Source: Verrucomicrobiota bacterium (GTDB lineage Bacteria > Verrucomicrobiota > Verrucomicrobiia > Limisphaerales > SXTU01). Taken from it: a DNA stretch of 64,000 nucleotides. Positions within the stretch are counted from its first letter, which is position 1; each line of letters opens with the position of its first letter. Below are positions 24,753 to 64,000 of the stretch, piece by piece. Under the pieces are notes generated by a model. It saw only the letters and a program-made list of their open reading frames with translations. It was not told the DNA's origin and did no database searches. The translations under genes and the position numbers were made by a program. Where the stretch lies: positions 125,324 to 189,323 of the forward strand of contig JBDKJY010000005.1 of the NCBI GenBank assembly GCA_039796295.1, in the 5' to 3' direction.

Positions 24753-26855
24753 ATGAGCCACCGCAACGGCACCGATCCCTTGGAAGCCCTGGCTGCGTCC
24801 CCACAGGTCTCGCGCATTGACCGCTACGTGCGCTTCGTCGCGCGCAAATGGTGGCTCGTGGCGCTCACGATCATCGCCTGCGTCGGCGGCCAAGCCTACA
24901 TCGCGGTCAACGAACCGACGGAATACAGCTCCTTTGCCCGCATGATGGTGGGCGGCAAGGTGAAGCTCCCGGACAGCGGCCTCTTCTCCGAGGACGCGCT
25001 GAATTTCTTCGGCACGCAGATGGAGCTGATGCAAAGCGATAAGATCAAAGAGCGCGCTCATGCTGCGGTGAAGGCGGCGCAACCGGACCTCAACCGGGCC
25101 ACGGTGCAGCTCCAGGTCACCCAGCTCCGCCGCACTTCAATCTTCCAATTGAAGGCCAGCAGTCTCGACGGGGCGTATGCTCAGGCATACCTGAACGCGC
25201 TGGTGGAAGAATACCTCGCCTACAAGAAGGAGATGCGGGTGGTCGCCTCCGACGACACGCTAGCCTCGCTTACGACTAAGCTCCTCCAGCAGGAGAAGGA
25301 GTTGAAGAGCGAGCAGGACAAACTTCACCAGTTCAAGAAAGCCAACAACGTCGCACTCCTTCAAGAAATGGGCTCGGCAGCCGGCAACTACCTCGCCCGC
25401 CTCACCACGCAGCTCTCGGATCTCCAAGTGGAGGAGAAGGTGCTGGCCGCCCTCACCGCCGAGGAGAACGTCGGTAATCAGGTCAAAACGCGCGGCACGG
25501 AATCCAAGGCGGTCAACGATTCTTCCACCGCCGGCATCCTCCCGCCCGCCGACTACCTCACGGCCAAGCAGCAAGTTCAGTTGCTCAAATTCCAGCGGGA
25601 CGAGTGGGGCCTGTTCATGCGCCCCGAGCACCCGAAGATGGTGAAGCTGGCCGAGGACATTGCCCGCGTGGACAAACTCATCGAGGTTTATCATCAGCAG
25701 AGCCGGGACCAGTTGGAATCGGCGCGCCGCTCCGTGCGGCTGCGCATGACGAGCGTCGAAACCTCCATCCTCACCTGGGAATCCAAGGTGCTCGAAGCCA
25801 ACACCCGCATGGCGGATTTCGACCAGCTCAAGGCCACGCTCGCCCGTTCGCAGGCCCTCTACGACCAACTGTTGCGCCTGCTTCAAAACGTGGACGTGAA
25901 CAAAAATCTGGAGCCGGAAAGCATCGTCACGCTCGAACGCGCCACGCTCGCCAGCGCGTTGAACCAACTGCCGCTCAAGCTCGCCGTTGCCGCGACTGTC
26001 GGCCTGATCTTCGGGCTGGGCTTGCTGGTCGTCTGGGAGCGCAGCGATGACCGGCTTTCGAGCCTCAATGAGCTTAAGGAGCAGTTCGAGGAAACCGTTG
26101 TGGCACAGGTGCCGCAGGTGCCTGGCGTTTCCCGGCGACGGCCGCTCAAGCCGATCAGTGCGAACGACGAACGCTCGATTTTTGCCGAGAGCCTCCGCCA
26201 CGTGTATTCCTCACTCCAGTTCCGGGACAGCGCCGGGCGCGCCCCCAAGTATCTGCTCGTCACCAGCGCCGTGCCCGACGAAGGCAAGTCCACCATCGCC
26301 GCGAACTTGGCCATGACGATGGCCCTCGCCGGTTCCCGCGTGCTGTTGATTGACACGGACCTGACGCGTGGCGCGCTCCACCAGACGTTCGGGGTGCCGG
26401 TCGCGCCTGGCCTGGTCGAACTCTTCTCGCAGGACCTGCCTTTTGAAAAAGTCATCACCTCCGGATCGCATCCGAATCTGCACCTGATTCCGCGCGGGCA
26501 GATGAACGAGTTGCCCCATTCCTTCTACCTCAACCCCACGCAGTGCCAGCAGCTCAAGGACTGGGCCAAGGCGTATGACTACGTCCTCTTCGACAGCGCG
26601 CCCCTGTTCGCCGGCGCGGACGCCGTCACGCTGGCTCCGCAAATGGACGGCGTGTTCATGGTCGTGCGCCGCCGCTACAGCCGCGCCGGTGTGTTGACGC
26701 AAGCGCTGGAAATGCTCTACCAGCGCCACGCCCGAGTCCTCGGCATCGTGTTCAACCGCGCGGACGCTGTGTCCGACGTTTACTACCAATACGGTTACAA
26801 AACCTACGGCGTGCGTTCGCGCCCGGCTGAAAAGACCAAGCCCGCCCGCGTGTAG
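24753..26855 (+). CDS. chain-length determinant / tyrosine autokinase (GumC/Wzc-like)
   Basis: N-terminal Wzz-like TM, a long coiled coil, a second TM, then a C-terminal P-loop LLVTSAVPDEGKSTIAANLA and DTDL (Walker A'/B). Confidence 0.85.
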   Translation: MSHRNGTDPLEALAASPQVSRIDRYVRFVARKWWLVALTIIACVGGQAYIAVNEPTEYSSFARMMVGGKVKLPDSGLFSEDALNFFGTQMELMQSDKIKERAHAAVKAAQPDLNRATVQLQVTQLRRTSIFQLKASSLDGAYAQAYLNALVEEYLAYKKEMRVVASDDTLASLTTKLLQQEKELKSEQDKLHQFKKANNVALLQEMGSAAGNYLARLTTQLSDLQVEEKVLAALTAEENVGNQVKTRGTESKAVNDSSTAGILPPADYLTAKQQVQLLKFQRDEWGLFMRPEHPKMVKLAEDIARVDKLIEVYHQQSRDQLESARRSVRLRMTSVETSILTWESKVLEANTRMADFDQLKATLARSQALYDQLLRLLQNVDVNKNLEPESIVTLERATLASALNQLPLKLAVAATVGLIFGLGLLVVWERSDDRLSSLNELKEQFEETVVAQVPQVPGVSRRRPLKPISANDERSIFAESLRHVYSSLQFRDSAGRAPKYLLVTSAVPDEGKSTIAANLAMTMALAGSRVLLIDTDLTRGALHQTFGVPVAPGLVELFSQDLPFEKVITSGSHPNLHLIPRGQMNELPHSFYLNPTQCQQLKDWAKAYDYVLFDSAPLFAGADAVTLAPQMDGVFMVVRRRYSRAGVLTQALEMLYQRHARVLGIVFNRADAVSDVYYQYGYKTYGVRSRPAEKTKPARV

Positions 26856-50697: not shown

Positions 50698-50774
50698 ATC
50701 AACCTCCCTGTTAAACACTTAACCGTAGTTCAACCAACGTTAGTAACCGCAGTCTCAGTAATTAAATCCACACC

Positions 50775-52004
50775 ATGAAACTCAATAAAAACATCCTCAC
50801 TGCTGCTGCGAGCCTGATGCTCGCCGCGTCGGCCCACGCCGACTTCAGCATCTACATCACCGGCTCCACGGCATTCCGTGGCGCGGCTTATACGAGCATC
50901 CTCTCGCTCTACGATGCTGCCGGCCTGAACGTGAACGCCTCCGCCGGCACGGCGAAGCCCTTCACCACCATCGCGAACCCCGAGGCCCCCGGCAAACCCG
51001 TCACGGCTGGCACGGTCACCACCTACAGCGGTGCCAACGCCATGGCCTTTAGCGGCACGATGCCGGCCTTCGGGTCCCAGATCGTGACCATCTATTGCCT
51101 CTGGAGCGGCTCCGTGGAAGGCATCCGTGACGTGACGCTGAACACTTCCCTGGACTTCCTCAGCACGGCTGTCAGCCAGACCAGCGCGTTCGCCGATGCC
51201 GGTCAGACCACCACGGCGGACTTCGCGTTCTCGGACGTGTTCCAAGCCTCGACGACCTACAAGACCCCCACGCTCCAGGGCACGAAGGTCGGCGTCATCC
51301 CGTTCGCGCTCGTGAAGAACCAGGGCGCTCCCGCTAACCTCACGAACATCTCGCACCAGCAGGCCATCACCCTGTTCGCTAACGGCGTGGTTTCCTTGCC
51401 GTTCATCACCGGTGACCTCACGGGTGACACCAACAAGGTGGCGTGCTTGATCGGCCGCTACAACGGCTCCGGCACCCGCTACGCGGTCTTCGCCGACACC
51501 GGCTACGGCGCGCTGAAGAGCTCCGTGAACTACAAGTATAGCGCCAACGCCGGTCCCGGCAGCACCCCGGCCTTCACCGCTGTGACGCCTGACCCGAACG
51601 TCGGTCACACCAGCGGCAGCAGTGTCAAGACCGACGTCAGCTTCGCCATCAGCACCGCGCTGAACGCGGCGGGTGACACTTATGTCACCGGCTACGCCAT
51701 CGGCTACCTCGGCGTCAAAGACGCCTACGGCGTGACCGGCAACGGCTCTGGTGCGTTGAACCTCACGTATGACGGTGCTGCTTACAGCCCCGCTAACGTC
51801 TACAACGGCACCTACACCATGTGGAGCTACCAGCACATCTACAACAAGTCCGGCCTCAGCACGGACAAGACCACGTTCAAGGCTAACCTCGCGGCGGCCA
51901 TCCCGAACAACCTGGGCAGCGGCACCGGCGCGAGCGGTCTCAAGCTCACCGATATGTCCGTCCAGCGTTCCGTGGACGGCGGCCCCATCGGCACCCAGTA
52001 TTAA
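50775..52004 (+). CDS. secreted PstS-like (PBP_like_2-type) substrate-binding-fold protein
   Basis: Signal peptide. ITGSTAFRGAAY, WSGSVEGIRDV, FAFSDV, LTNISHQQAITLFANG...RYNGSGTRYAVF match the periplasmic binding protein type-2 pattern (LT..Q...IF.G...R...SGT...F). Confidence 0.65.
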   Translation: MKLNKNILTAAASLMLAASAHADFSIYITGSTAFRGAAYTSILSLYDAAGLNVNASAGTAKPFTTIANPEAPGKPVTAGTVTTYSGANAMAFSGTMPAFGSQIVTIYCLWSGSVEGIRDVTLNTSLDFLSTAVSQTSAFADAGQTTTADFAFSDVFQASTTYKTPTLQGTKVGVIPFALVKNQGAPANLTNISHQQAITLFANGVVSLPFITGDLTGDTNKVACLIGRYNGSGTRYAVFADTGYGALKSSVNYKYSANAGPGSTPAFTAVTPDPNVGHTSGSSVKTDVSFAISTALNAAGDTYVTGYAIGYLGVKDAYGVTGNGSGALNLTYDGAAYSPANVYNGTYTMWSYQHIYNKSGLSTDKTTFKANLAAAIPNNLGSGTGASGLKLTDMSVQRSVDGGPIGTQY

Positions 52005-52031
52005 GCTAACCGCTTAAAACTTCTGACTCAG

Positions 52032-52063
52032 ACAGCGCGGGCTTCGGCCCGCGCTGTTTTTTT
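52032..52063 (+). terminator. rho-independent terminator
   Basis: 11-bp stem ACAGCGCGGGC / GCCCGCGCTGT with a UUCG loop, followed by T7. Confidence 0.85.
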
Positions 52064-52413
52064 GTGCCCTGTTCCAACCCGTGAACCGCCCACCGCGAGA
52101 GCGGGAGCCACGCCTGTTCAGTCCAGCGGATGGTGCGCGGACGCCTACATCCGCAAGTCGGCGGCGCAGTTGTTACCGATCCGGCCCGCCCGGAGTATTC
52201 CCACGGTTCGTATGGACAGGTGACATTCTGCCAAGGAAAGCCATTCGCGCGAAGACCGAGTGGGAAAATCAAGGGTCCGTAACCGAGCGCGGGGTTCCGT
52301 AACGGATCGCCAGGGAACGTCGCTTGGCGATGGCGCTCACCGGTTGTTTGATGGCGACGCGACTCATACCCAGTCGCTCCCAACCACATCCTGCCCCCGA
52401 CTCCGCTGCCCAT

Positions 52414-55400
52414 ATGAAAAACCTGTTCCTGAATGCTGCCCTGATCCGCACCCTGCGCTGGTGCGGCGCATTGACCGTGTGCCTGCTCGCGTTGCAACCA
52501 GCCGCCAGCGTGGCCGGCCCGTTCTCGGCCGGAAACCTGGCGGTCATCCAAGGCGAAGGTTCCGCCAGCAACACCAACGCGACGGTGATTGAGCTGAACA
52601 CCACGACAGCCAGCCAGTCCGCCGTGCAATCCATCGCCATTGATGGGACGACCATGCCCGGCTCAATGCGGTTCAGTGCCTCGGCCTCGAGCACCATGTA
52701 TTTGGCGCTGAACAATGACGGCACGTTGCTCGTGTTCAACGGCGCGAACACGAACCACGGCGCGGCAAATGTGAACACTTACCTGCGGCGCGGCATCGGC
52801 TCCCTGAACCCGCTGGGCACCTTCGGAATCCAGACGACTTACGATGGCACCAGCGGCAACCAGACGCGCGGGGCCTCCAGCGTGGACAACGTCAACTGGC
52901 TCATCGGCGACCAGGGCGGCATCTACACGAACGGTGCGACGGCCGCCAGCGGCACCGGGAACATGCGCGGGATCAAGTCTTTTGGCGGCACGGTCTATGG
53001 CTTTCAAGCCTCCGCCTCGTTGCCACCGGTGGGCACCGTTACCGCCACGGCCTACACCGCGTTGACGGGCCTGGCGAACGGCAACGCGAACAAGACGGAC
53101 TTTTACCTGATCTCTTCCGGCAGCAACGGCTCCACTTACGATGTCCTCTACGTCGTCGAGGCCACGTCGGCGACGGTGGGCGTGATTTCCAAGTATTCGC
53201 TCGTGACCGGCTCATGGACGGCGAACGGAACTTACGCGACGACCTTCGGTGGGTTCGGTTTGGCGGCTGCGAAGAATGGCAGCGGTGCGAATCTTTACGT
53301 GACGACCGGCTCCGGGGCCACCTCGGCCAACAGCGTGATCAAATTGGCGGACACCGCTGGCTACAACTCCACGATCAGCATCACGACCGGCAACAACGTG
53401 ACGCTCTTCACCGCGGCAACGGGCAAGCTGCTCAAGGGCATCACCTTCGCGCCCAACGGCATTGTCACGAGCGGCACGCTCTCGGCGGTGAGCACGACCT
53501 ACGGCACGGCGTCGAGCGCCGCATCGTTCACGGCCTCCGGCGCGGGTCTCACGGCGGACCTCGTGGTGACGGCGCCCAGTGGGTTTGAAGTCTCCACCAC
53601 GATTGGCTCCGGTTACGGCGCGAGCGTCAGCCTGACGCCGACCAGCGGGACGGTGTCCGCCACCACGGTTTACGTGCGCTTGGCCGCGACCACGGCGGCC
53701 GGCTCCTACTCCGGCAACGTCGTCTGCACCAGCACGGGCGTGACGACGCAGAACGTGGCCATGCCGTCCAGCACCGTGAGCGCCAAGGGCCTGACCATCA
53801 CGGGCCTGAGCGGGGTGAGCCGGAACTACAACGGCACGACGGCGGCGACCCTGACCGGCACGGCGGCCTTGAGCGGCGTGCTGGTCGGCGATGTCAGCAA
53901 CGTGACACTCGGCGGTTCGCCGACGGCGACGTTCGCCACGGCGGGTGCGGGCACCAGCAAGGCAATCACGGTGACGGGATATTCCATTAGCGGTTCGGCG
54001 GCGGCGAATTACAGCCTCGCCCAGCCCACCGGTTTGATCGCCGACATCAACCAAACCGCGCTGACCATTACGGCGAACAACGTGTCGAAGGCGCTCGGTG
54101 CCACGCTCACCAGCGGTTCCGGCTCCACGGCCTTCACCAGCGCGGGTCTGGTGAACTCGGAGACCATCGGCACGGTGACGATCACCTATGGCAGCGGCGC
54201 GGCGGCGGGGGATTCCGTGGGCACTTACACCGGCTCGGTCACGCCGTCGGCGGCGACGGGCGGGACGTTTACCGCAGCGAACTACGCCATTACCTACACA
54301 GCGGGCGACATCAACGTGAGCGCCAGCCCGGCGATCAACGTCAGCGGCACCCTGAGCGCGGTGAACGCCACCTACGGCAGCCCGTCGCCGACGCCCACGA
54401 GCTTCACCGCTTCCGGCGGCAACCTGACGGGGAACCTCACCGTCACGGCCCCGGCGAACTTTGAAGTCTCTACCACGCTCGGCTCCGGTTACGGCGCGAG
54501 CCTGAACCTCACGGCCTCCGGCGGCACGGTGGCGAACACCACGATCTACGTGCGCCTCGCGGCGGGACCGGTGGTGGGAAATTATTCGGGCAACGTGTCC
54601 GTGTCCGGCGGCGGCGCGACCACGCAAACTGTGGCGATTCCTTCCAGCTCGGTGTCGGCGAAGGGACTGACCATCACCGGCCTCAGCGGCGTGAACAAAG
54701 TTTACGACCGCAACAACACGGCGACCCTCACGGGCACGGCGGCGTTGAGCGGCGTGGTGAGCGGCGATGAAAGCAACGTGACGCTCGCGGGCACGCCCAG
54801 CGCGACGTTTGCCACCATCACGGTCGGCACGATCAAGGCGATCACCGTCACGGGCTACTCGCTCACCGGCTCGGCGGCGGCGCAATACACTCTCGCGCAA
54901 CCCGCCGGACTCACGGCGGACATCACGGCCAAGGCGCTCACCATCACCAGCGCGGCGGTGACGACGAAGGCTTACGACGGCACCACGGCAGCCACGATCA
55001 CCGGCACGCTTTCCGGCGTAGTCTCGCCCGACGCGGTTACGCTGAACGGCACGGGCACCTTCGCCAGCGCTGGCCCTGGCGTGGGTTTGGCGGTGACTTC
55101 GACCAGCACGCTCGGCGGGGCTGATGCCGGCAATTATTCGCTCACGCAGCCCACCGGCCTGACGGGCACCATCACGGGCAGCGCGAACGCCGATCTCTCC
55201 GCGCTAACCGTGAACGGCGGCCAGCTCTGGCTCTCACCGAACTTCGCGGGCAGCACGACGAACTACACGACCTACCCGGACCACGCGACCAACAGCATCA
55301 CGATCACGCCGACCGTGGCGGACGCGAATGCGACGGTGAAGGTCAACGGCACCACCGTCACCTCCGGCACGGCCAGTGCGGCCATCTCGATCAACCACGG

Positions 55401-58400
55401 CACGAACATCATCACCGTGGTGGTGACCGCGCAGGACGCGGTCACGACGAAGACGAACACGATCATCGCCATCCGGTCGGCGACCTCGCTCCTCCCGGGG
55501 GCGATTGCCTTCACGGGCTTCGATGCCGATGGCAGCGATGACATCGCCTTCGTCGCGCTGACGAACATCCCAGCCAACACGGTGATTCACTTCGGCGACA
55601 ACGCGTGGAACGGCTCCGCCATTGGTTCCGGCGGGGCCTTCGCGGGCTTCACCGAAAGCGAGTGGGTGTGGATTGCTCCCGCAGGCGGCCTCGCGGCGGG
55701 CACCGTGGTGGCGATCAATAACTTGGCCGCCACCCCGACCGTCACCGCAGGCACGATGGAGTTTGTGGACACCGCGAACCGTGGTCTGAGCACCACGGCG
55801 GAAACCATCTATGCCTTCCAGGGCTCCTCGCACGTCCCGACGGTTTTCTTGGCGGGCATTTCCTCGGAGACCGGCACGCCTTTCCAAAACACCGGCCTTT
55901 CCGGTGGCGCGGCGGTGACCTTGAGCAGCAGCTCGGACGGCGCCCGCTACAAAGGCGCGCGCACGGGGCAGACGACGTTCGCCGCTTGCCTCGCGCTGAT
56001 TGGCGACGTGGCGAACAACTGGGATGACATCGCCAATGGTGACGGCACGACGTATCTGCCGTTCAGCAGCACGGCGTTCACGGCCACGGCCTTTGACGCC
56101 AACGTGAGCATCAACGATGTGTCGGTCACCGAAGGCGACGCTGGCACCAAGACGCTCACGTTCACCGTCACGCGCTCCGGCAACGCCGGGGCGTTCACCC
56201 TCGACTACGCCACCGCCAACGGCACCGCGACGACGGCAAACAGCGATTACGCCGCCACGAACGGGACGCTGAACTTCACCGCAGCAGGCAGCCTCACGCT
56301 GACGGTGGACGTCACGCTCAACGGTGACACCACGGCGGAAGGCGACGAAACGTTCGTAGTCAATCTGTCCAACGTCATCAACTCGCTCGGCACCGCGACG
56401 GTCACGAAGTCGCAGGGCACCGGCACGATCCTCAACGACGACCCCGTCGCACCGAGCATCAGCGTGCAGCCCGCCAGCGTGACCATCGCGACCGGCTCGG
56501 CCACGACCTTGAGCATCACCGCCTCGGGCACGCCGACGCCGACGTATCAGTGGTATCTCGGCGCGAGCGGCAACACGGCCAGTCCGATCTCCGGGGCGAC
56601 CTCCGCCACCTACACCACGGCGGTGCTGCTGGCCAACACCAGCTACTGGGTGCGGGTGTCGAACAGCGCCGGCACGGTGGACAGCACCACGGCGGCGGTC
56701 ACGGTGAGTTACGCCACGCCCTACGCGAGCACGAACCTTGCAGTCCTCGCCCCCAACACTGCGGCGTGGAATCCGGCGGGCGTCACGGTGAATGGCACGA
56801 CCTTCATCAACCTCGGCCTGCAAGGCATGGGCCGCGTGCCCGCCAGCGCGATTGATTCGGCCACGGGTGAATCCCTCGGCTCGATCTCCGACATGCAGAT
56901 CAGCGGCTGGAAGAAGAACACGGACGGCAGCTACAGCGGCACGCTGAACACGCTCCCCGACCGCGGCTATAACAACGGCGCGACGTTCTCGAACTACCGG
57001 GCGCGCCTCAACAACTTCGCCTTCACGTTCACGCCTTACACGAACTCGACGCCCACCAACGCGCAGAACCAGATCGCGCTGACCTTCACCGGCTCGACCG
57101 CCTTCACCTACAACAATGGCGCGGGCCAGAAGTTTACGACGGGCCTCCCCGCTGACGGCACCGCGTCGCTCTTCGGCACCACGGTGCCCGTGGCCGCCGG
57201 TAACACGACGCAGAGCGATGGCACGGTGGCCAACCGCCTGACGCTCGATTCCGAAGGCCTCATCCTCGACCAACGCGCGGGCAAGAGCGGCGCGGGCTGG
57301 ATCGGCGACGAATACGGCGGCTCGATCTACCACTTCAACAGCTCGAAGCAGATTGACGGGCAACTCATCCTGCCCGCCGCGCTGATCCCGCACTCGCCCG
57401 TCGGCACGGTTAATTTCAATGGCACGCCGGTCAACGGTCGCCGCGACAACCAAGGCATGGAAGGCATTGCGCAAAGTCCGGACGGCACGCGGCTCTTCGC
57501 GCTGATGCAGAGCGCCACGATCCAGGACACTGGCTCGGGCAATCAGGGCCGTTATAACACCCGCCTGCTCGTCTATGACATCTCCTCCACCGACACGCCG
57601 ACCGATCCGATCGCGCAGTATGTGATCCAGCTCCCGCGCATCGACACCACCGGCTCCACAAGCAACGGCACCACGGTGGACAAGGTCGGCGCGCAAAGCT
57701 CCATCGTCGCGTTGAGCACCAATCAAATCCTGATCCTCTCCCGCGATGGCAACGGGCGCGGCTCCAGCGGCTCGCCGGTCTTCAAGTCCGTCCTGCTCGC
57801 CGACCTCTCGTCCGCCTCGAACATCGACGGCAGCTACGACGCCGAAGGCGCAGCGGTCGCGCCGAGTGGCACGCTCACGGCCGGCGTGACGCCGCTGGCG
57901 TGGACGGAAGCGCTGAACATGGTGGGCAAGCTCGGCGCAACCACGGCCGAAGTGGAGAAGTTCGGCTTGAATCTCAACACCGCCCCCGGCGACACCAATA
58001 CCATCAGCGAGAAGTGGGAGGCGCTCACGTTGGTCTCCGCGAATGACGCAGCGAACCCGAACGACTACTTCCTCTTCGTTGGCAACGACAACGACTTCAT
58101 CACCGGCACCGGCAAATATCTGGACGCGAGCGGCACGGTGCAGAGCTACAACGCCGGCCTTGAGAACGACTCCATCGTGCTTGTCTGGCGCGTGCGCATG
58201 ACCAGCTCGTTCAACCAGCCGCCGTTCGTCGCCAACGCGATCGCGGATCAGACGTCCGTGGCTACGGCGGCGTTCTCCTTCGCCTTTGCGGCGAACACGT
58301 TTGCTGATCCGGAAAGCCAGACGCTGACCTACACGGCCACCAAGGCGGACGACACCGCCCTGCCCTCCTGGCTCACGTTCAACTCCAGCACGCGCACCTT

Positions 58401-60297
58401 CTCCGGCACGCCGACCTCGGGCGACGCGGGCACGCTCACGGTCAAGGTGACGGCCACGGACAACGGCTCGCCGAATCTCTTTGGCAGCGCGACCTTCACC
58501 ATCACGACCGCCGTGGACAGCACGTCGCCGACGATCAATCTCAGCGCACCTTCCGCTAGCATCACGGCGGGCGGCTCCGTGACCTACACGGTGACGTATG
58601 CGGACGCGAACTTCAGCGCTAGCACCCTGGCGAACGGCAATATCACGCTGAACAAGACCGGGACCGCCAACGGCTCCGTAGCGGTGACCGGTTCGGGCAC
58701 GACGCGCACGGTGACCCTCAGCAGCATCACCGGCGATGGCACGATTGGCATCTCCGTCGCCGCCGCCACGGCCAGCGACACGGCGGGCAACACCGCTCCT
58801 GCCGCCGGGCCGAGCACGACCTTCACGGTGGATAACACGGCGCCCACGGTGGGCATCGGTTCGCCTTCGGCCAGCAGCACCGCCAGCGGCCCGATCACCT
58901 ACACGGTCACGTATGCGGATGCGAACTTCAGCGCGAGCACGCTCACCACCGGCAACATCACGCTGAACACGACCGGCACCGCGAACGGCAGCGTGGCGGT
59001 GACCGGTTCGGGCACGACGCGCACGGTGACCCTCAGCAGCATCACCGGCACCGGCACGCTGGGCATCTCGCTGGCGGCGGGGACGGCCAGCGACACGGCG
59101 GGGAACACCGCGCTGGCGGCAGGGCCGAGCACGACCTTCACGGTCACGCCGGCGGTGGCCGACCTGAACATCTACCTCACCGGCTCCACGGCCTTCCGGG
59201 CGGCGGCGTATGCGGGCATCGCGGCGCTTTACAACACCGGGTTCAGCGTGAACGCCTCCGCCAGTGCGGCGGCGCCGTTCACCACCATCGCGAACGCGCA
59301 GGCCCCTAACCGGCCCAGCGCGGACAGCACCTTCGAAGGGGCGAACTTCATGACGTTCAGCGGCACGATGACCATGTTCGGCGCGCAGGTCGTCGTCATC
59401 CGGTGCAACTGGAGCGGTTCGGTGGCGGGCATCCGGGATGTGGCGCAGCAGAACAGCCTGTCCTTCCTGAGCACGGCCCTGAGCCAGACCTCGGCCTTCA
59501 CGGACAACGGCACCACCGGCGTGCCGGACTTCTGCTTCTCGGACGTGGGCCAGACCGCGACGCTCTACAAGTCCCCCACGCTCCAGAACGTGACGTGCGC
59601 CGTGCTGCCCTACGTGTTCGTGAAGAATCAAGGCGCGCCCGCCAACCTCACGAACCTCCTCCACCAGCAGGCGATCACGTTGTTCGCTAATGGCGTGGTG
59701 CCGCTGCCCCTCCTCACGGGTGACATCACGGGTGACACCAACAAAGTGGCGTGTTTGATCGGTGGCTACTCCGGTTCCGGCACTCGCCTCGCGGTCTTTG
59801 CCGACACCGGCTACGGCGCGCTGAAGAACTCTGTGAATTACAAGTATAGCGCCACCGCAAACGCCGGTTCCCCGGCCTTTACCCTCGTGTCCCCGGACCC
59901 GAACGTCGGGCACACCAGCGGCGGCTCGGTGAAGAGCGACCTGAGCAACGCCATCAGCACCGCGCTGAACGCGGCGGGTGACACGTATGTCACCGGCTAC
60001 GCCCTCGGTTACCTCGGCATCAAAGATGCCGCTGGGGTCACCGGCAATAGTTCCGGCGCGTTGAACCTGGCTTACGACGGCGCGACCTATAGCGCGGCCA
60101 ACGTGAAGAGCGGCACCTACTCCCTCTGGAGTTACGAGCGGCTTTACCACCGGTCCGGCCTCAGCGGCGACCTCACCACGTTCCGGGGCTTCCTGACGAA
60201 CGCGGTGATCAGCAACTTGGGCACGTCCGCCCTCCCGCTCTCCACTATGTCCGTGGAGCGCGCGGTGGACGGTGGCCCGATCGGCACCAAGTATTAA
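52414..60297 (+). CDS. giant (2627 aa) multi-domain surface adhesin-like protein with C-terminal PstS-like domain
   Basis: ATG 52414 gives the signal peptide MKNLFLNAALIRTLRWCGALTVCLLALQPAASVAG. Approximate domains: YDG/MBG-type repeats 53.4-55.2 kb, cadherin-like beta-sandwich 55.2-55.5 kb, Calx-beta 56.10-56.45 kb, Ig-like 56.45-56.70 kb, phytase-like esterase beta-propeller 56.9-58.2 kb, dystroglycan/cadherin-like Ig 58.2-58.5 kb, 2 x 105-aa Ig-like repeats 58.5-59.15 kb, PstS-like domain 59.16-60.29 kb. Confidence 0.85.
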   Translation: MKNLFLNAALIRTLRWCGALTVCLLALQPAASVAGPFSAGNLAVIQGEGSASNTNATVIELNTTTASQSAVQSIAIDGTTMPGSMRFSASASSTMYLALNNDGTLLVFNGANTNHGAANVNTYLRRGIGSLNPLGTFGIQTTYDGTSGNQTRGASSVDNVNWLIGDQGGIYTNGATAASGTGNMRGIKSFGGTVYGFQASASLPPVGTVTATAYTALTGLANGNANKTDFYLISSGSNGSTYDVLYVVEATSATVGVISKYSLVTGSWTANGTYATTFGGFGLAAAKNGSGANLYVTTGSGATSANSVIKLADTAGYNSTISITTGNNVTLFTAATGKLLKGITFAPNGIVTSGTLSAVSTTYGTASSAASFTASGAGLTADLVVTAPSGFEVSTTIGSGYGASVSLTPTSGTVSATTVYVRLAATTAAGSYSGNVVCTSTGVTTQNVAMPSSTVSAKGLTITGLSGVSRNYNGTTAATLTGTAALSGVLVGDVSNVTLGGSPTATFATAGAGTSKAITVTGYSISGSAAANYSLAQPTGLIADINQTALTITANNVSKALGATLTSGSGSTAFTSAGLVNSETIGTVTITYGSGAAAGDSVGTYTGSVTPSAATGGTFTAANYAITYTAGDINVSASPAINVSGTLSAVNATYGSPSPTPTSFTASGGNLTGNLTVTAPANFEVSTTLGSGYGASLNLTASGGTVANTTIYVRLAAGPVVGNYSGNVSVSGGGATTQTVAIPSSSVSAKGLTITGLSGVNKVYDRNNTATLTGTAALSGVVSGDESNVTLAGTPSATFATITVGTIKAITVTGYSLTGSAAAQYTLAQPAGLTADITAKALTITSAAVTTKAYDGTTAATITGTLSGVVSPDAVTLNGTGTFASAGPGVGLAVTSTSTLGGADAGNYSLTQPTGLTGTITGSANADLSALTVNGGQLWLSPNFAGSTTNYTTYPDHATNSITITPTVADANATVKVNGTTVTSGTASAAISINHGTNIITVVVTAQDAVTTKTNTIIAIRSATSLLPGAIAFTGFDADGSDDIAFVALTNIPANTVIHFGDNAWNGSAIGSGGAFAGFTESEWVWIAPAGGLAAGTVVAINNLAATPTVTAGTMEFVDTANRGLSTTAETIYAFQGSSHVPTVFLAGISSETGTPFQNTGLSGGAAVTLSSSSDGARYKGARTGQTTFAACLALIGDVANNWDDIANGDGTTYLPFSSTAFTATAFDANVSINDVSVTEGDAGTKTLTFTVTRSGNAGAFTLDYATANGTATTANSDYAATNGTLNFTAAGSLTLTVDVTLNGDTTAEGDETFVVNLSNVINSLGTATVTKSQGTGTILNDDPVAPSISVQPASVTIATGSATTLSITASGTPTPTYQWYLGASGNTASPISGATSATYTTAVLLANTSYWVRVSNSAGTVDSTTAAVTVSYATPYASTNLAVLAPNTAAWNPAGVTVNGTTFINLGLQGMGRVPASAIDSATGESLGSISDMQISGWKKNTDGSYSGTLNTLPDRGYNNGATFSNYRARLNNFAFTFTPYTNSTPTNAQNQIALTFTGSTAFTYNNGAGQKFTTGLPADGTASLFGTTVPVAAGNTTQSDGTVANRLTLDSEGLILDQRAGKSGAGWIGDEYGGSIYHFNSSKQIDGQLILPAALIPHSPVGTVNFNGTPVNGRRDNQGMEGIAQSPDGTRLFALMQSATIQDTGSGNQGRYNTRLLVYDISSTDTPTDPIAQYVIQLPRIDTTGSTSNGTTVDKVGAQSSIVALSTNQILILSRDGNGRGSSGSPVFKSVLLADLSSASNIDGSYDAEGAAVAPSGTLTAGVTPLAWTEALNMVGKLGATTAEVEKFGLNLNTAPGDTNTISEKWEALTLVSANDAANPNDYFLFVGNDNDFITGTGKYLDASGTVQSYNAGLENDSIVLVWRVRMTSSFNQPPFVANAIADQTSVATAAFSFAFAANTFADPESQTLTYTATKADDTALPSWLTFNSSTRTFSGTPTSGDAGTLTVKVTATDNGSPNLFGSATFTITTAVDSTSPTINLSAPSASITAGGSVTYTVTYADANFSASTLANGNITLNKTGTANGSVAVTGSGTTRTVTLSSITGDGTIGISVAAATASDTAGNTAPAAGPSTTFTVDNTAPTVGIGSPSASSTASGPITYTVTYADANFSASTLTTGNITLNTTGTANGSVAVTGSGTTRTVTLSSITGTGTLGISLAAGTASDTAGNTALAAGPSTTFTVTPAVADLNIYLTGSTAFRAAAYAGIAALYNTGFSVNASASAAAPFTTIANAQAPNRPSADSTFEGANFMTFSGTMTMFGAQVVVIRCNWSGSVAGIRDVAQQNSLSFLSTALSQTSAFTDNGTTGVPDFCFSDVGQTATLYKSPTLQNVTCAVLPYVFVKNQGAPANLTNLLHQQAITLFANGVVPLPLLTGDITGDTNKVACLIGGYSGSGTRLAVFADTGYGALKNSVNYKYSATANAGSPAFTLVSPDPNVGHTSGGSVKSDLSNAISTALNAAGDTYVTGYALGYLGIKDAAGVTGNSSGALNLAYDGATYSAANVKSGTYSLWSYERLYHRSGLSGDLTTFRGFLTNAVISNLGTSALPLSTMSVERAVDGGPIGTKY
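58522..59151 (+). repeat. intragenic tandem repeat, 2 x 315 bp (105 aa units)
   Basis: acctacacggtgacgtatgcggacgcgaacttcagcgc at 58582 recurs at 58897. The units are near-identical (TYTVTYADANFSASTL..GNITLN.TGTANGSVAVTGSGTTRTVTLSSITG). Confidence 0.9.
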
Positions 60298-60323
60298 GCG
60301 ACTGGCTTAAACCTCTGACTCAA

Positions 60324-60355
60324 ACAGCGCGGGCCTCGGCTCGCGCTGTTTTTTT
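60324..60355 (+). terminator. rho-independent terminator (paralog of 52032-52063)
   Basis: Stem 60324-60334 / 60339-60349 with one G-U pair, loop CTCG, then T7. The flanking sequence ...cttaaa.ctctgactca.acagcgcggg...tttttttgtgccc is shared with the first terminator. Confidence 0.85.
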
Positions 60356-60420
60356 GTGCCCGGACCTGGCCGGGGAAGCGACGGTTTGGGGAGCCCAGCC
60401 GGAAGGATGCAGTGGACCCG

Positions 60421-60589
60421 TAAGGAGCGCGGCCTTCAGGGCGCAGCAACGGCCTTCCCCTCGCAGGGTTTAGACCAACGACGGTGTTGGGGGAGACAAA
60501 CTGTTGGGTTCGTTCCCAGCGGACCCCACGAAACGGGTCCAGCCCCCCGGCGATGCTACGCTTCTGCGGCCTGAAGGCCGCGCTCCTTA
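60421..60589. repeat. 20-bp perfect inverted repeat enclosing 129 nt (long hairpin or MITE-like element)
   Basis: TAAGGAGCGCGGCCTTCAGG (60421-60440) and its exact reverse complement (60570-60589). After one mismatch the pairing extends 5 bp more (60442-60446/60564-60568). Internal hairpins include GGACCC...GGGTCC and CCAAC...GTTGG. Confidence 0.9.
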
Positions 60590-60736
60590 TGGCATCGGTC
60601 CCGCTAAGTCATCGCAGAGTGGCCAGTTGGCGGGCGAAGCGTGCTCGCGGGCGTCCGGTTTGGGGTAAATCACGAGCTTCACGGCAGGAATTTGATCTTG
60701 AGTGGCACCAAAGGGCCAAAAACCATCTAACCAGTC

Positions 60737-60883
60737 ACTAGACAGTCAATTATTTCGACTGGCCGACTGATTTGCGCGACTGGACAGTCCATTAACTTAA
60801 CTGGACAGCCGATTTGCGCGACTGGACGGCCTATTCACTCTACTAGATGGTATAGTAATCTGACTAGTCAGATGGTCAGGATA
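60737..60883. repeat. seven-unit array with exact 21-bp phasing (ACTRG-initiated units), in a locally AT-rich patch
   Basis: Units start at 60737, 60758, 60779, 60800, 60821, 60842 and 60863: ACTAGACAGTC, ACTGGCCGACT, ACTGGACAGTC, ACTGGACAGCC, ACTGGACGGCC, ACTAGATGGTA, ACTAGTCAGAT. A nested 17-bp repeat GATTTGCGCGACTGGAC occurs at 60769 and 60811. The palindrome TGACTAGTCA is at 60861-60870. Confidence 0.9.
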
Positions 60884-61147
60884 GGTTTCCGGCTGTGATT
60901 TTGACCCTTGGGAAGGCTCTGTTGTGTGCCTGCGGGGTGGGGGATGGCATCGAAGTCGATAAGTCTTCACGCTAGAGGCGTAGGTGAAGGGGATGGTTGG
61001 GCCGCTCAACTCGGTGCGCTTGTAAACCCGGTAGGGGCGACCTGCGGGTTGGCCAGGGTGGGTGTCGGCCGCCGGCGGCCGCGCGGCCGCGCGGCCCTAC
61101 CTGGGTTTAAGGTTAACCTTGATTGGAACAGCCGTAGTCCGGGTGGA

Positions 61148-61924
61148 CTACAGGGCACTGGTGCGCCGCACGGCGAAGATTTCGTCGCTGCTCAGGGGGC
61201 CGGTGGCGGGCACGCGCTCGCCGTCGAGGTAGAAGAGCGAGTAGCCAAGGCTTTTGAGCAGCCGGACGCACTGTTCCTCCTGCACTTGGCCATGCAGGGC
61301 GAGCAGGATGTCCGGCGAATGCTGCTCCAGGATGGGCCGGAAGGCGGGGAGGACCGCGCTTTCTGCACCTTCGATGTCCACTTTGAGCAGTTGAGGGATA
61401 GCGGCGGGGAGGGCGGCGAGGACGGCGGCCGGGGTAAGCGTGGGGACGAGGTAGGGGAGGTCCCGACCGGCCAGGGCACCCATCGAACTATTGTGGGTGG
61501 CGGTGAAACCGAGCAGGTCGGCGGTGTCACTGAGGGCGGCTTGGATGACTTTAACGTTGGTGAGGGCGTTGAGTTCGAGGTGGTGCAGGAGGAAGGCCAC
61601 GTTGGCGGCCAAAGGTTCAAAGGCGAGCACCTGGCCGGTGGGGCCGACGAGTTGGGCGAAGGCCAGGGTGTAGAAGCCCACGTTGGCACCGATGTCCCAA
61701 ACGGTCATACCGGGTTTGACCACGCGGGCGACGAAGTCTTGTTTCTCAAACTCGTAGGTGCCGAACCAGCAGCGCTGGATGCTGGAGCCGCAGACCCAGC
61801 GGCGGCCGCGGTTGAGGCCCGTGGGGATGCGGACGACGCAGCTCGCGGGGACGAGTTTCAGCGGAAGCCGCAGGAGCCGTCCCAAAAGGGAGGTGTGGTC
61901 GGTGCGGGTGAGCTGGCGGAGCAT
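61148..61924 (-). CDS. FkbM-family methyltransferase
   Basis: VWDIGANVGFYTLAFA...LLKVDIEGAESAVL. ATG 61924 is chosen; the listed ORF's upstream extension is Arg/Gln-rich and overlaps the preceding gene. Confidence 0.8.
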   Translation of the reverse strand: MLRQLTRTDHTSLLGRLLRLPLKLVPASCVVRIPTGLNRGRRWVCGSSIQRCWFGTYEFEKQDFVARVVKPGMTVWDIGANVGFYTLAFAQLVGPTGQVLAFEPLAANVAFLLHHLELNALTNVKVIQAALSDTADLLGFTATHNSSMGALAGRDLPYLVPTLTPAAVLAALPAAIPQLLKVDIEGAESAVLPAFRPILEQHSPDILLALHGQVQEEQCVRLLKSLGYSLFYLDGERVPATGPLSSDEIFAVRRTSAL

Positions 61925-61986
61925 GACGGCGGAGGCGTTGGCCGTGGAAGTGGGAGCCACAAGCGCCGAGGGGGCCTCGCCGCCGC

Positions 61987-63291
61987 TTACGGCACGCGGG
62001 TGGCTTGCAACACGTAGAAGCGCGTCGCATCGGGGTTGGTGTCGGTCAGGGTCTGCGGGCTGCCGTTGCCGTTGACGCTGCCCGCCGCGACGGGCCAAGT
62101 GCTGATGGGGGAGTTAAGTCCAGCGGCGTTGGTGTAACGGAGGGTGTAGCTGACGCCCGCGTAGGAGGGGAACGTGATGGTGGAGGTCTGGCTCACCCGC
62201 GTGATGCCGTTGGCGCTGATGAGCGGGAGGAAGGCGTCCACGATGGTGCCAGTGGCGGGGTTGGTGCCCAAGGTGCCGTTCACCGGGCTGGAGAGCAGGA
62301 CGGTGAAGTTGACGGAGTTCTTGTAAGTCGTGCGGCCCAGCGCGGGCACGGTGATGGTGAGGTTTGTGATGCCGGCGATGAAGTTGAGCGTGCCGCTGGT
62401 GGTGGTGTAATCCGTGCCGGCCACGGCGGTGCCGTTCTGCGTGGCGTAGTTGACGGAGACGGCGGAGGCGAAGTTGGTGGAGAGGGTGACGGTGAAGACG
62501 GCGTTGGAGGTGCCATTGGTGGCGATCTGCACGGTGGTGTTGGCGATGGAAATAGTCGGCGGGGTGGCGACCGCGCCGCCCGCCGCAGTGAAGGTCATGG
62601 TCCCATTGGCGAACAGGTCGAAGTAACCGAGGAGCGTCGGCGTGCCCAAAGGCTTGAGCTGATACAGGTCGGAGCGGACGAAGGCCGCGCCGGTGAAGGG
62701 CGCGGGCGTGAGGTTTTCGATGCTGCCTTGGAAGCCGCCGAAGTCGCCGTTATCGCCGATGAACGCGTTGTAGCTCTGGGGATTCCCATTCGGAATGATA
62801 ACGGCGGTGGCGGTGTTGTTGGCTCCGGGAGCGATGCTGCTGCTGTAGGCGGCGGCATTGTCGCCGACGGAGAGGGCGGGGGTAACGGTGTTGCCTTGGA
62901 CGCTGATGGAGGCGGTGCTCCAGGGGGTGCTCTGGACGTTGGGATCGAGGCGCGGGGCCGTGAGCCAGAGGGTGTTCCGGGGGGCGTTGGGATCGCCGGC
63001 CGCGTTCATGCCGCCGGAAACCGACCAGTTGACGTTGGCGTAGGAAGCGCCGAACGCGGTGGTGAGCTGGCTGGCGGTGAAGCCTGTGATGGCGAACGTG
63101 CTGCCGGGCGTGGCGCCGTAGTAGAGGGAGGCTTGGCCCAGGTTGACTTCGAGGTTGGAGGTGCCGCCGACCTTGCGGAAGCCCAACATGAGGTCTCGGA
63201 CGTTGTAATTCAGCGGGCCAGCCGTGACTGCGGCCACACTGGTGAGGATGGCGACGGCGACAGAGAGTAAGTTCAGCGAGCGTTTCGACAT
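61987..63291 (-). CDS. secreted protein: N-terminal domain paralogous to 49876-50697, plus Calx-beta-like domain and an unassigned C-terminal domain
   Basis: ATG 63291 gives the signal peptide MSKRSLNLLSVAVAILTSVAAVTAG (alternative TTG at 63315). LMLGFRKVGGTSNLEVNLG aligns with MLLGFRKDSQSSNLEVNLG. VNYATQNGTAVAGTDYTTTSGTLNF is Calx-beta-like. No PEP-CTERM tail. Confidence 0.75.
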   Translation of the reverse strand: MSKRSLNLLSVAVAILTSVAAVTAGPLNYNVRDLMLGFRKVGGTSNLEVNLGQASLYYGATPGSTFAITGFTASQLTTAFGASYANVNWSVSGGMNAAGDPNAPRNTLWLTAPRLDPNVQSTPWSTASISVQGNTVTPALSVGDNAAAYSSSIAPGANNTATAVIIPNGNPQSYNAFIGDNGDFGGFQGSIENLTPAPFTGAAFVRSDLYQLKPLGTPTLLGYFDLFANGTMTFTAAGGAVATPPTISIANTTVQIATNGTSNAVFTVTLSTNFASAVSVNYATQNGTAVAGTDYTTTSGTLNFIAGITNLTITVPALGRTTYKNSVNFTVLLSSPVNGTLGTNPATGTIVDAFLPLISANGITRVSQTSTITFPSYAGVSYTLRYTNAAGLNSPISTWPVAAGSVNGNGSPQTLTDTNPDATRFYVLQATRVP

Positions 63292-63347
63292 AGGATGAAG
63301 GGCAGTCAATTTCAAAAAGAGGGCGTGACTTTAAGGAGGGCAGTCAG

Positions 63348-63388
63348 TGGGAGCATTCGGTTTTCGGACATGGCATGGGAGCATTCGG
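63348..63388. promoter_or_regulatory. 13-bp direct repeat pair upstream of the 61987-63291 gene
   Basis: TGGGAGCATTCGG at 63348-63360 and 63376-63388 (28-bp spacing), 57-97 bp upstream of the ATG on the - strand. Confidence 0.3.
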
Positions 63389-63498
63389 CCACCAGAATCC
63401 GGCCCGATTCCCATGTGAAACGACGCCAATTCCGGGAAACCGCCGTCGGAGGGGAGATTTGTTGCCAAATTGTGCGGCCGCCGAGCCGGGCCAGCGGG

Positions 63499-64000
63499 CT
63501 ACGGGCTGGCCTGCTGGTAGGCGACGGCCTCGCGCAGATACTCATTGTAGCGCTGATAACCAATCAGCGACCGGAGGAGGTCGTCAGTCTGCTGGAGGGC
63601 GGCGCGGCGGCGCTTTTCGAAATTGGGGTCAGCCGTGTTGGTGGGGTTATTGCCGAAGTCTGCCTCGAACTGCTGGCTTAGGCCTTGGAGCAATTTCAAT
63701 TCGGTCTCGCTGGGTTTGATGCCGGCGTAGATCTGCTTCAACTGGGCGAACGAAGCGTCCTGAGTGGTGAAGCCAGCCAAGGAATCTTCGGTCGCCGGTG
63801 AGGCGGCGGGTGAGGGCGCAGCGGAGGGAGCCTGCGGGCGCGCGCCGCTGGTGCGAACGGCGGCTGGAACCGACGATAACGGCGGTGGGGACAGGAGTTG
63901 CTGGCGGACGGCCTGCTCCTCGCGGTCGATGGATTCCGTCGCGCGGGCAACTTCTGGCGCTGCCTTGGCAGTCGCGCGGGCGGTATTGCGGCGAGCATCG
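63499..64000 (-). CDS. hypothetical protein, C-terminal part (5' end beyond window)
   Basis: The frame ending at TAG 63499-63501 stays open to nt 64000. It has a Pro/Ala/Ser-rich linker followed by ...FAQLKQIYAGIKPSETELKLLQGLSQQFEADFG... I recognise no family. Confidence 0.5.
   Translation of the reverse strand, partial: DARRNTARATAKAAPEVARATESIDREEQAVRQQLLSPPPLSSVPAAVRTSGARPQAPSAAPSPAASPATEDSLAGFTTQDASFAQLKQIYAGIKPSETELKLLQGLSQQFEADFGNNPTNTADPNFEKRRRAALQQTDDLLRSLIGYQRYNEYLREAVAYQQASP

Follow-up and report, generated by a model that had tools for sequence, protein, structure and literature searches.

The window analysed here, a stretch of DNA of 64,000 nucleotides (64 kb), is a piece of the chromosome of a PVC-type bacterium and encodes, amongst others, DUF1501, DUF1552 and PSD/PSCyt proteins and a polysaccharide cluster. 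Within it, a giant surface-protein ORF of 2657 aa on the plus strand (52324–60297) and the gene for an FkbM-family methyltransferase of 258 aa on the minus strand (61148–61924), the product of which is identical to P0124 (NCBI: Verrucomicrobiota MAG), converge on an 850-bp spacer that contains an array of short direct repeats. The giant gene is followed by an intrinsic terminator (60322–60351, plus strand) with a 13-bp stem and a T run, which is conserved in relatives and constitutes the left edge of the ancestral spacer. As had been proposed from the sequence alone, the array is located downstream of both flanking genes; since both of them end here, the cassette to which the array belongs would regulate no adjacent gene, and no downstream gene is present on the plus strand.

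The neighbours of the array comprise the giant surface protein, the FkbM protein and a Calx-beta protein, and its wider surroundings are a chromosomal polysaccharide/secretion cluster that is syntenic with relatives lacking the array. Rep, Par, transposase and regulator genes are absent among the proteins scanned, the only ParA-like P-loop match being a polysaccharide chain-length kinase (24753–26855), and the 8 kb beyond the window that are covered by assembly L184 contain no initiator gene either. The earlier remark that a cognate DNA-binding gene is not visible nearby thus holds for initiator, partition and regulator genes over 64 kb and a further 8 kb. In the same neighbourhood, the last ~400 codons of the giant gene together with its terminator (59145–60357) are a paralogue (~70–75% at the nucleotide level) of the upstream 409-aa gene (50775–52004) and its terminator (paralogous stretch 50743–52065). 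To the right of window position 64000, L184 (1–7924) encodes a 255-aa protein and then a two-partner secretion pair, composed of a ShlB/POTRA transporter (902 aa), which gives AraC-type HTH matches as well, and a TPS exoprotein of 1348 aa, with MotA/ExbB next to it.

The array follows a strict register. Direct reading and a regular-expression search agree on ACT(A/G)G starts in exact 21-bp steps at 60737 (unit 1, ACTAGACAGTCAATTATTTCG), 60758 (unit 2, ACTGGCCGACTGATTTGCGCG), 60779 (unit 3, ACTGGACAGTCCATTAACTTA), 60800 (unit 4, ACTGGACAGCCGATTTGCGCG), 60821 (unit 5, ACTGGACGGCCTATTCACTCT), 60842 (unit 6, ACTAGATGGTATAGTAATCTG) and 60863 (unit 7, ACTAGTCAGATGGTCAGGATA), and beyond these seven register starts the search finds no further ACT[AG]G in 60700–60900. 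The periodicity lies far above that of 2000 dinucleotide shuffles of the intergenic region, with self-matches at lag 21 amounting to 68/126 (shuffles 43.1 +/- 3.4, largest 55) and at lag 42 to 64/105 (shuffles 36.9 +/- 3.0, largest 50). Tandem Repeats Finder, which the sequence-only reading had recommended, reports both a period of 42 (2.2 copies, 79%, score 112) and a period of 21 (score 71). The nested 17-bp repeat with a 42-bp period that had been noticed before is GATTTGCGCGACTGGAC, found at 60769 and 60811 with 42 bp between the two; likewise, the perfect palindrome seen in the last unit is TGACTAGTCA at 60861–60870, and the GC content is indeed far below the window average (0.46 in the array versus 0.647).

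Conservation is uneven along the array. Units 1 to 5 (60737–60841, plus strand) are strong, scoring 16–23.5 bits on a matrix made from the units and conforming to ACTRGMCRRYY-N-ATT, while no other site of at least 12 bits on this matrix exists within the 64 kb. The two following units, ACTAGATGGTATAG... and ACTAGTCAGATGG... (60842–60883, plus strand), keep the register but are decayed (8.7 and 4.1 bits); hence, what had been described as a seven-unit array retains its seven register starts, of which only five are good sites. In the strong units conservation is bipartite, comprising ACTRGACRG and, one helical turn on, ATT (positions 13–15). ACT, G5 and ATT are invariant across all five, AC and G9 are also conserved, and positions 12 and 16–21 vary. 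The spacers alternate between an AT-rich version and GATTTGCGCG, which accounts for the 42-bp superperiod. Given that the blocks are ~10 bp apart and the unit measures 21.0 bp, i.e., two helical turns, all blocks, and with them all motifs, come to lie on one face of B-DNA.

The array of site motifs (ACTRGACRGYSNATT, 21 bp apart) is enclosed by two inverted arms. The left arm, ACCATCTAACCAGTCA (60722–60737), repeats the decayed terminal unit in inverted orientation, and the right arm, TGACTAGTCAGATGGT (60861–60876), contains the palindrome TGACTAGTCA; each arm is 16 nt long, 14 of the 16 positions are complementary (88%), and the arms are 123 nt apart. Together with a short leader, in which GGCACC is found at 60704–60709, the left arm, the repeat array and the right arm form a cassette at 60701–60883 (plus strand), the limits of which are set by homology to a second copy, L166:2366–2546, discussed below. 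By reading, no direct repeat that could represent a target-site duplication is present beside the arms, neither in the window (60716–60721 versus 60877–60882) nor in L166.

An array of this kind recalls several well-known systems. LytTR-type sites (AgrA, ComE, YpdB, BtsR) are 9–10-bp direct repeats that occur in twos, rarely in threes, upstream of a promoter; they share the 21-bp centre-to-centre distance with the present array, in which, however, the repeats number five to seven and no gene follows downstream. ParR-type centromeres consist of several direct repeats at two-turn spacing and are AT-rich, and the sites of ParR, ParG and TubR (R1 parC, pSK41 parC, tubC) are next to a par operon, usually overlapping its promoter. 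Like these phased direct repeats, which are coated cooperatively on one face to give a filament-like complex, the array is phased, but here par genes and their promoter are absent. Iteron origins, too, combine direct repeats spaced by two turns with AT-rich surroundings (PMC6090056). With iteron arrays of theta-replicating plasmids and chromids, such as those of P1, F, RK2 and Vibrio ori2 (PMC6090056), the cassette has in common direct repeats of ~17–22 bp set about two turns apart, free spacers next to a conserved core, an AT-rich setting and an inverted repeat, which in iteron systems is often iteron-related and close by; in contrast to them, it is devoid of an adjacent initiator gene, a DnaA box and a replicon and lies between the ends of chromosomal genes.

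It could be asked whether the array functions as a plasmid-type iteron origin or as a centromere-like (ParR/ParB-type) site of an integrated replicon, as the sequence-only reading had offered. Its five to seven direct repeats, placed two helical turns apart in AT-rich DNA, would suit such a site, yet no initiator or partition gene accompanies it, no TTATCCACA DnaA box with at most one mismatch exists in 60298–61147, and no separate AT-rich repeat block adjoins the array, even though the patch is AT-richer. Neither plasmid nor phage similarity is found, and the setting is a chromosomal polysaccharide/secretion cluster syntenic with array-less relatives, so that we consider this explanation very improbable. 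Of the broader proposal of same-face phased sites, two-turn phasing and the bipartite core speak in favour, while the iteron, centromere and regulator families fail on context.

The array is non-coding, as five of its frames contain stops and frame +1, although open, has no start codon before 60872. Of fifteen small spacer ORFs, the three longest have no Pfam match; 59800–61600 yields no Rfam match at E<=1; no tRNA was found; and the spacer contains no promoter-like site, its sole terminator lying upstream of the array. The spacer also houses two window-specific palindromic elements. One, at 60418–60592, just past the terminator of the giant gene, has arms of 34 nt (60418–60451 and 60559–60592) that are 88% complementary and separated by 107 nt; none of the relatives possesses it, and it has no second copy in the 72 kb seen. 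The other, a GC-rich hairpin at 61023–61109, holds the perfect 20-bp palindrome GGCCGCGCGGCCGCGCGGCC (61077–61096); over 4 kb, the window differs from L184/L185 at four positions only (61057, 61064, 61072 and 61074), all of which fall within this hairpin.

Relatives delimit where the array occurs. The Logan assemblies L184 and L185 match window positions 59955–64000 and 60558–64000, respectively, with 99.9% identity, carry the array unchanged and are assemblies of the same organism. L186 and L187 are ~77% identical and possess the same convergent pair, i.e., a giant gene (3615 aa) and FkbM, with a spacer of only 191 bp, in which no motif site is found and of which the alignment to the cassette is no better than that of shuffles. 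Common to this short spacer and that of the window are the terminator, an 18-bp piece at 60679–60696, which is weak, as 14/500 shuffles score equally well, and the last ~45 bp before FkbM, where from 61101–61112 onward the match is clear. These shared flanks place window-specific material between about 60697 and 61100, a stretch without counterpart in L186/L187. Six further relatives (L120–L125) have spacers of 50–190 bp that lack the motif. A proto-unit in the relatives' spacers was considered and rejected, since motif scores and local alignments were no better than in shuffles. Beside FkbM, L120–L125 have, of the two paralogues described above, only the small gene, at the place of the 3615-aa giant gene of L186/L187. 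Retention of the array in relatives with the same flanking genes is thus not observed, and, as judged from these comparisons, the array is not part of the conserved locus.

In a dispensable spacer, a neutral minisatellite might have arisen, in which a 42-bp piece was duplicated by slippage and is now decaying, its likeness to binding sites being incidental. A higher-order structure of 42 bp, of which no more than 2.2 copies are good, decayed edges, the absence in relatives, the lack of a partner gene and a site where insertions are harmless would all agree with this. Nonetheless, we regard it as unlikely, because the 21-bp sub-repeat predates the 42-bp unit, two unrelated spacers going with the same core and ATT, and because another genome contains, at a different locus, a colinear array that shares ATT, the first unit and the inverted bracket.

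This second copy emerged from a metagenome scan for two 11-nt cores at 21-bp spacing, which returned 51 loci, most of them two-copy perfect duplications or matches within long open frames or coding repeats. The sole relative of the array among the 51 is L166, an uncultured metagenome contig of 4.1 kb (GC 0.59) that carries a DUF1501 gene. Its units are, in order, ACTAGACAGCGGATTATCTTC, ACTGGACAGCGCATTATCCTG, ACTGGACGGCCGATTATCTTC, ACTGGACGGCCGATTATTCTG and ACTGGATGGCGGATTATTCTG, after which decay sets in. By blastn, L166:2397–2496 matches window positions 60731–60830 with 72% identity over 100 bp (E 6e-9), and the two arrays are colinear, with a first unit GTC-ACTAGACAG, central ACTGGACRG units, a late ACTGGATGG and the 42-bp alternation of spacers. 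Identity between the copies is 0.84 at positions 1–9, 1.00 at positions 13–15 (ATT) and 0.33 at positions 16–21; as the search demanded an 11-nt core at 21-bp spacing, conservation of the core is partly a product of the search. Traits shared outside the search pattern comprise ATT, the start with GTC and ACTAGACAG, the late ACTRGATGG, the paired spacers, GGCACC and the bracket. All comparative statements on the cassette rest on only two independent copies, namely those of the window and of L166.

The L166 cassette begins 7 nt past the stop codon of a C5-methylase, which together with an Eco29kI-type endonuclease forms an upstream restriction-modification operon, while a 330-aa protein without Pfam family is encoded downstream; none of these neighbours is related to those in the window. 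A homologous copy at an unrelated locus, together with the absence of the array in L186/L187, largely corresponds to the two outcomes that the sequence-only reading had named as speaking against its own proposal, i.e., lack of conservation and membership of a dispersed repeat family; the homologous copy points towards a dispersed or mobile cassette.

A 52-codon ORF (L166 2358–2516), with an ATG overlapping the methylase stop (ATGA), runs through the whole L166 array and encodes TG(R/Q)xIIx heptads. It is probably a coincidence, given that the window copy has no start and that protein homologues are lacking; for the same reasons, the array as a coding peptide was discarded, even though frame +1 is open in both copies. 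Three other candidates were likewise rejected. A sigma-54 promoter needs a GG-to-GC spacing of N10, yet with the GGCACC upstream in both copies this spacing is N9. For an integron attC site, ATCTAAC fits RYYYAAC in the window only, its partner being GTC, not GTT, and L166 shows no match. A type III antitoxin finds no toxin gene downstream, the 330-aa neighbour in L166 having neither a Pfam family nor a homologue in the window.

The inverted repeat that brackets the array is present at the same place in both copies, but its sequence differs, with 4 of 12 consensus pairs changed on both sides; in L166 the stem comprises about 26 pairs. Such changes invite the reading of the cassette as a structured non-coding RNA, in which the arms would be the closing stem and ACUGGAC(A/G)G (with its GGA) would provide protein sponge sites or a 3' stabiliser. 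The 4/12 stem pairs changed on both sides would accord with this, as would folds that are stabler than those of shuffles (z -4.3 for the minus strand of the window, z -3.0 for the plus strand of L166) and the position of the L166 cassette 7 nt past the methylase stop, where it would sit in a 3' UTR. However, the two copies prefer opposite strands, owing to G-U pairs that fall on the minus strand in the window and on the plus strand in L166, and this opposite preference favours a repeat at the DNA level over an RNA. In addition, there is neither an Rfam match at E<=1 nor a promoter-like site or framing terminator, on the plus strand the array follows a strong terminator at a distance of 385 nt, the covariation comes from two sequences only, and an exact 21.0-nt period with motif blocks one DNA turn apart has no obvious meaning for an RNA. 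We therefore hold an RNA to be improbable.

The arms and the company of the L166 copy equally bring to mind transposon ends. Tn7, Mu and IS21-type ends have two inverted sets of sites that flank the transposition genes and end in TGT. The cassette resembles them in having several ~20–22-bp sites in direct order within about 100–150 bp, and differs in having one set only, no transposition genes, variable arms and conserved internal units. It might still be the relic of such an end, or a derived MITE, with the 21-bp repeats as candidate transposase-binding sites; terminal inverted arms around several closely spaced direct sites of ~21 bp, a fairly sharp left boundary of homology and the restriction-modification operon beside L166, a typical mobile cargo, would be in line with this origin. 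Against this weigh the absence of a transposase or helper ATPase gene from the proteins scanned and of a second inverted array from the window, the lack of a TGT terminus in the window copy and of a target-site duplication, and the fact that conservation resides in the internal repeats and variation in the terminal arms, which is the reverse of what is usual for transposon ends. A transposon-derived relic is, hence, hardly probable.

Searches for further copies were largely negative. In the ~72 kb of this genome covered by the 64-kb window and the adjoining 8 kb, the array is present once, and neither a minus-strand motif cluster nor an inverted second array is found in the window or in L184. 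A genome-collection scan for three ACTRGAC-N14 in succession did not include the source genome among the matches listed (at least 119 loci), which contained coding heptad repeats and other arrays. Scans of viral contigs returned nothing related to the array; the spacer, the array and its L166 counterpart, compared by BLAST with plasmid (72,556 records) and phage sequences, gave nothing relevant; a protein-database search with a plus-frame profile of the array produced no match; and literature searches with the motif strings retrieved primers only. As the strict metagenome scan gave a single relative, the cassette family would be rare or fast-diverging.

The scans also encountered other repeats, most of them with a 21-bp period. 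In halophilic Bacillaceae (L007, L011, L016, L029, L033, L047, L049, L076, L100), non-coding arrays in which 4–8 units of TTTACTAGACAA-N9 recur exactly every 21 bp are often found beside terminators, with at least two loci per genome in Piscibacillus sp. B03 (L007, L076) and Halobacillus sp. MO56 (L011, L049); in Filobacillus (L029), the array immediately precedes a gene of which the beginning, by eye, resembles that of trpF. These arrays look like a dispersed phased-repeat family. Chloroflexota (L018, L027, L045, L060, L083) have arrays of 4–8 units of AAACTGGACACAT-N8, again with a period of 21 bp, two of these loci (L027, L060) being on one chromosome. In Actinomycetota (L042, L085, L110), three to four direct 21-bp repeats of the GTGACTGGACGGACGACACGC type are directly followed by three to four inverted copies, which resembles a plasmid or ICE origin or an operator block. 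A near-palindrome, ACTGGACAGCCAGTT(ACCCAG), occurs in several copies at a conserved low-GC locus on ten MWV*/MWW* metagenome contigs (L133, L139, L147, L150, L162, L169, L171, L172, L176, L178). Finally, in Bacteroidota (L181 10060–10170; L182), the 21-bp tandem repeat GGCGGTCGAAGAGGGGCGGTT, which the protein database lists as an ORF of 71 aa and which is adjoined by a second repeat, CTCGTGCCTTATGTTACG, is preceded by an ECF sigma gene and followed by a thioredoxin-like gene, an ORF of 58 aa also being called in between. Matches of the minus-frame heptad profile to P0121 and P0122 were set aside, since they stem from a different 21-bp DNA repeat of Bacteroidota.

In its overall build, the cassette is closest to the BOX elements of pneumococci, with which it shares no sequence similarity. 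BoxB is about 45 bp long, whereas the module here measures 21 bp, is exactly phased with the helix and carries a bipartite motif; moreover, the cassette has neither a target-site duplication nor a matching IS and is represented by one copy in the 72 kb seen. What it does possess are terminal inverted repeats around a short, non-coding and AT-richer body. BOX elements are built from complementary boxA and boxC ends that enclose a variable number of tandem boxB modules, and small interspersed repeats often cluster together (PMC3049150). Like the BOX element, the cassette is intergenic, non-coding and AT-richer than its host, has inverted ends around tandem modules, lies beside other small palindromic repeats and differs in presence or absence between relatives (PMC3049150).

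Taken together, the conserved bipartite core, the free spacers and the exact two-turn phasing argue for a product of cooperative protein binding to one face of the duplex, and the BOX-like traits (arms, AT-richness, location in a shared 3' spacer, presence/absence, copy at an unrelated locus) favour an inserted passenger cassette. Our best, still tentative, reading is, therefore, that of a small inserted cassette of same-face predicted protein-binding sites, BOX-like in build and a passenger at this locus. It would be a non-coding element of ~160–185 bp, in which two inverted arms flank five to seven modules of 21 bp, and would either have been inserted into the 3' spacer of the converging genes or have originated there, in this lineage only. 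Each module would represent one bipartite recognition motif (ACTRGACRG, and ATT about 10 bp later), on which, as the most likely mechanism, a sequence-specific DNA-binding protein encoded elsewhere would dock. The docked protein may polymerise, five or more protomers lining up laterally to form a nucleoprotein filament on one side of the DNA, and the inverted arms, as inverted copies of the terminal module, may cap this complex. Protein binding, its cooperativity and the mobility of the cassette are what we infer from the arrangement of sites and from the two copies. Against this reading count that a candidate gene for the binding protein is absent nearby, and that the compensatory changes of the bracket suit an RNA or single-strand stem equally well. 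Rather than serving as a functional origin or centromere, the cassette would probably be a passenger or a remnant of a modular, dispersed repeat.

On a broader scale, it is conceivable, though doubtful, that Verrucomicrobiota and related PVC bacteria harbour a hitherto undescribed family of modular interspersed repeats, of which the cassette is the first representative seen; in such a family, a variable number of helically phased 21-bp modules between inverted arms would load a dedicated DNA- or RNA-binding protein. The similarly dispersed 21-bp phased arrays of Bacillaceae and Chloroflexota hint at a wider, unnamed class of such platforms. As it stands, the array is a documented oddity, i.e., binding-site-like, without a partner gene, confined to one lineage and with a single relative elsewhere, and it cautions that two-turn phasing by itself does not make an iteron or a centromere. 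To our knowledge, no modular interspersed repeat has been described in Verrucomicrobiota; if more copies exist, the cassette would provide one for the phylum, and its 15-bp bipartite motif would serve as a handle for the protein that reads it.
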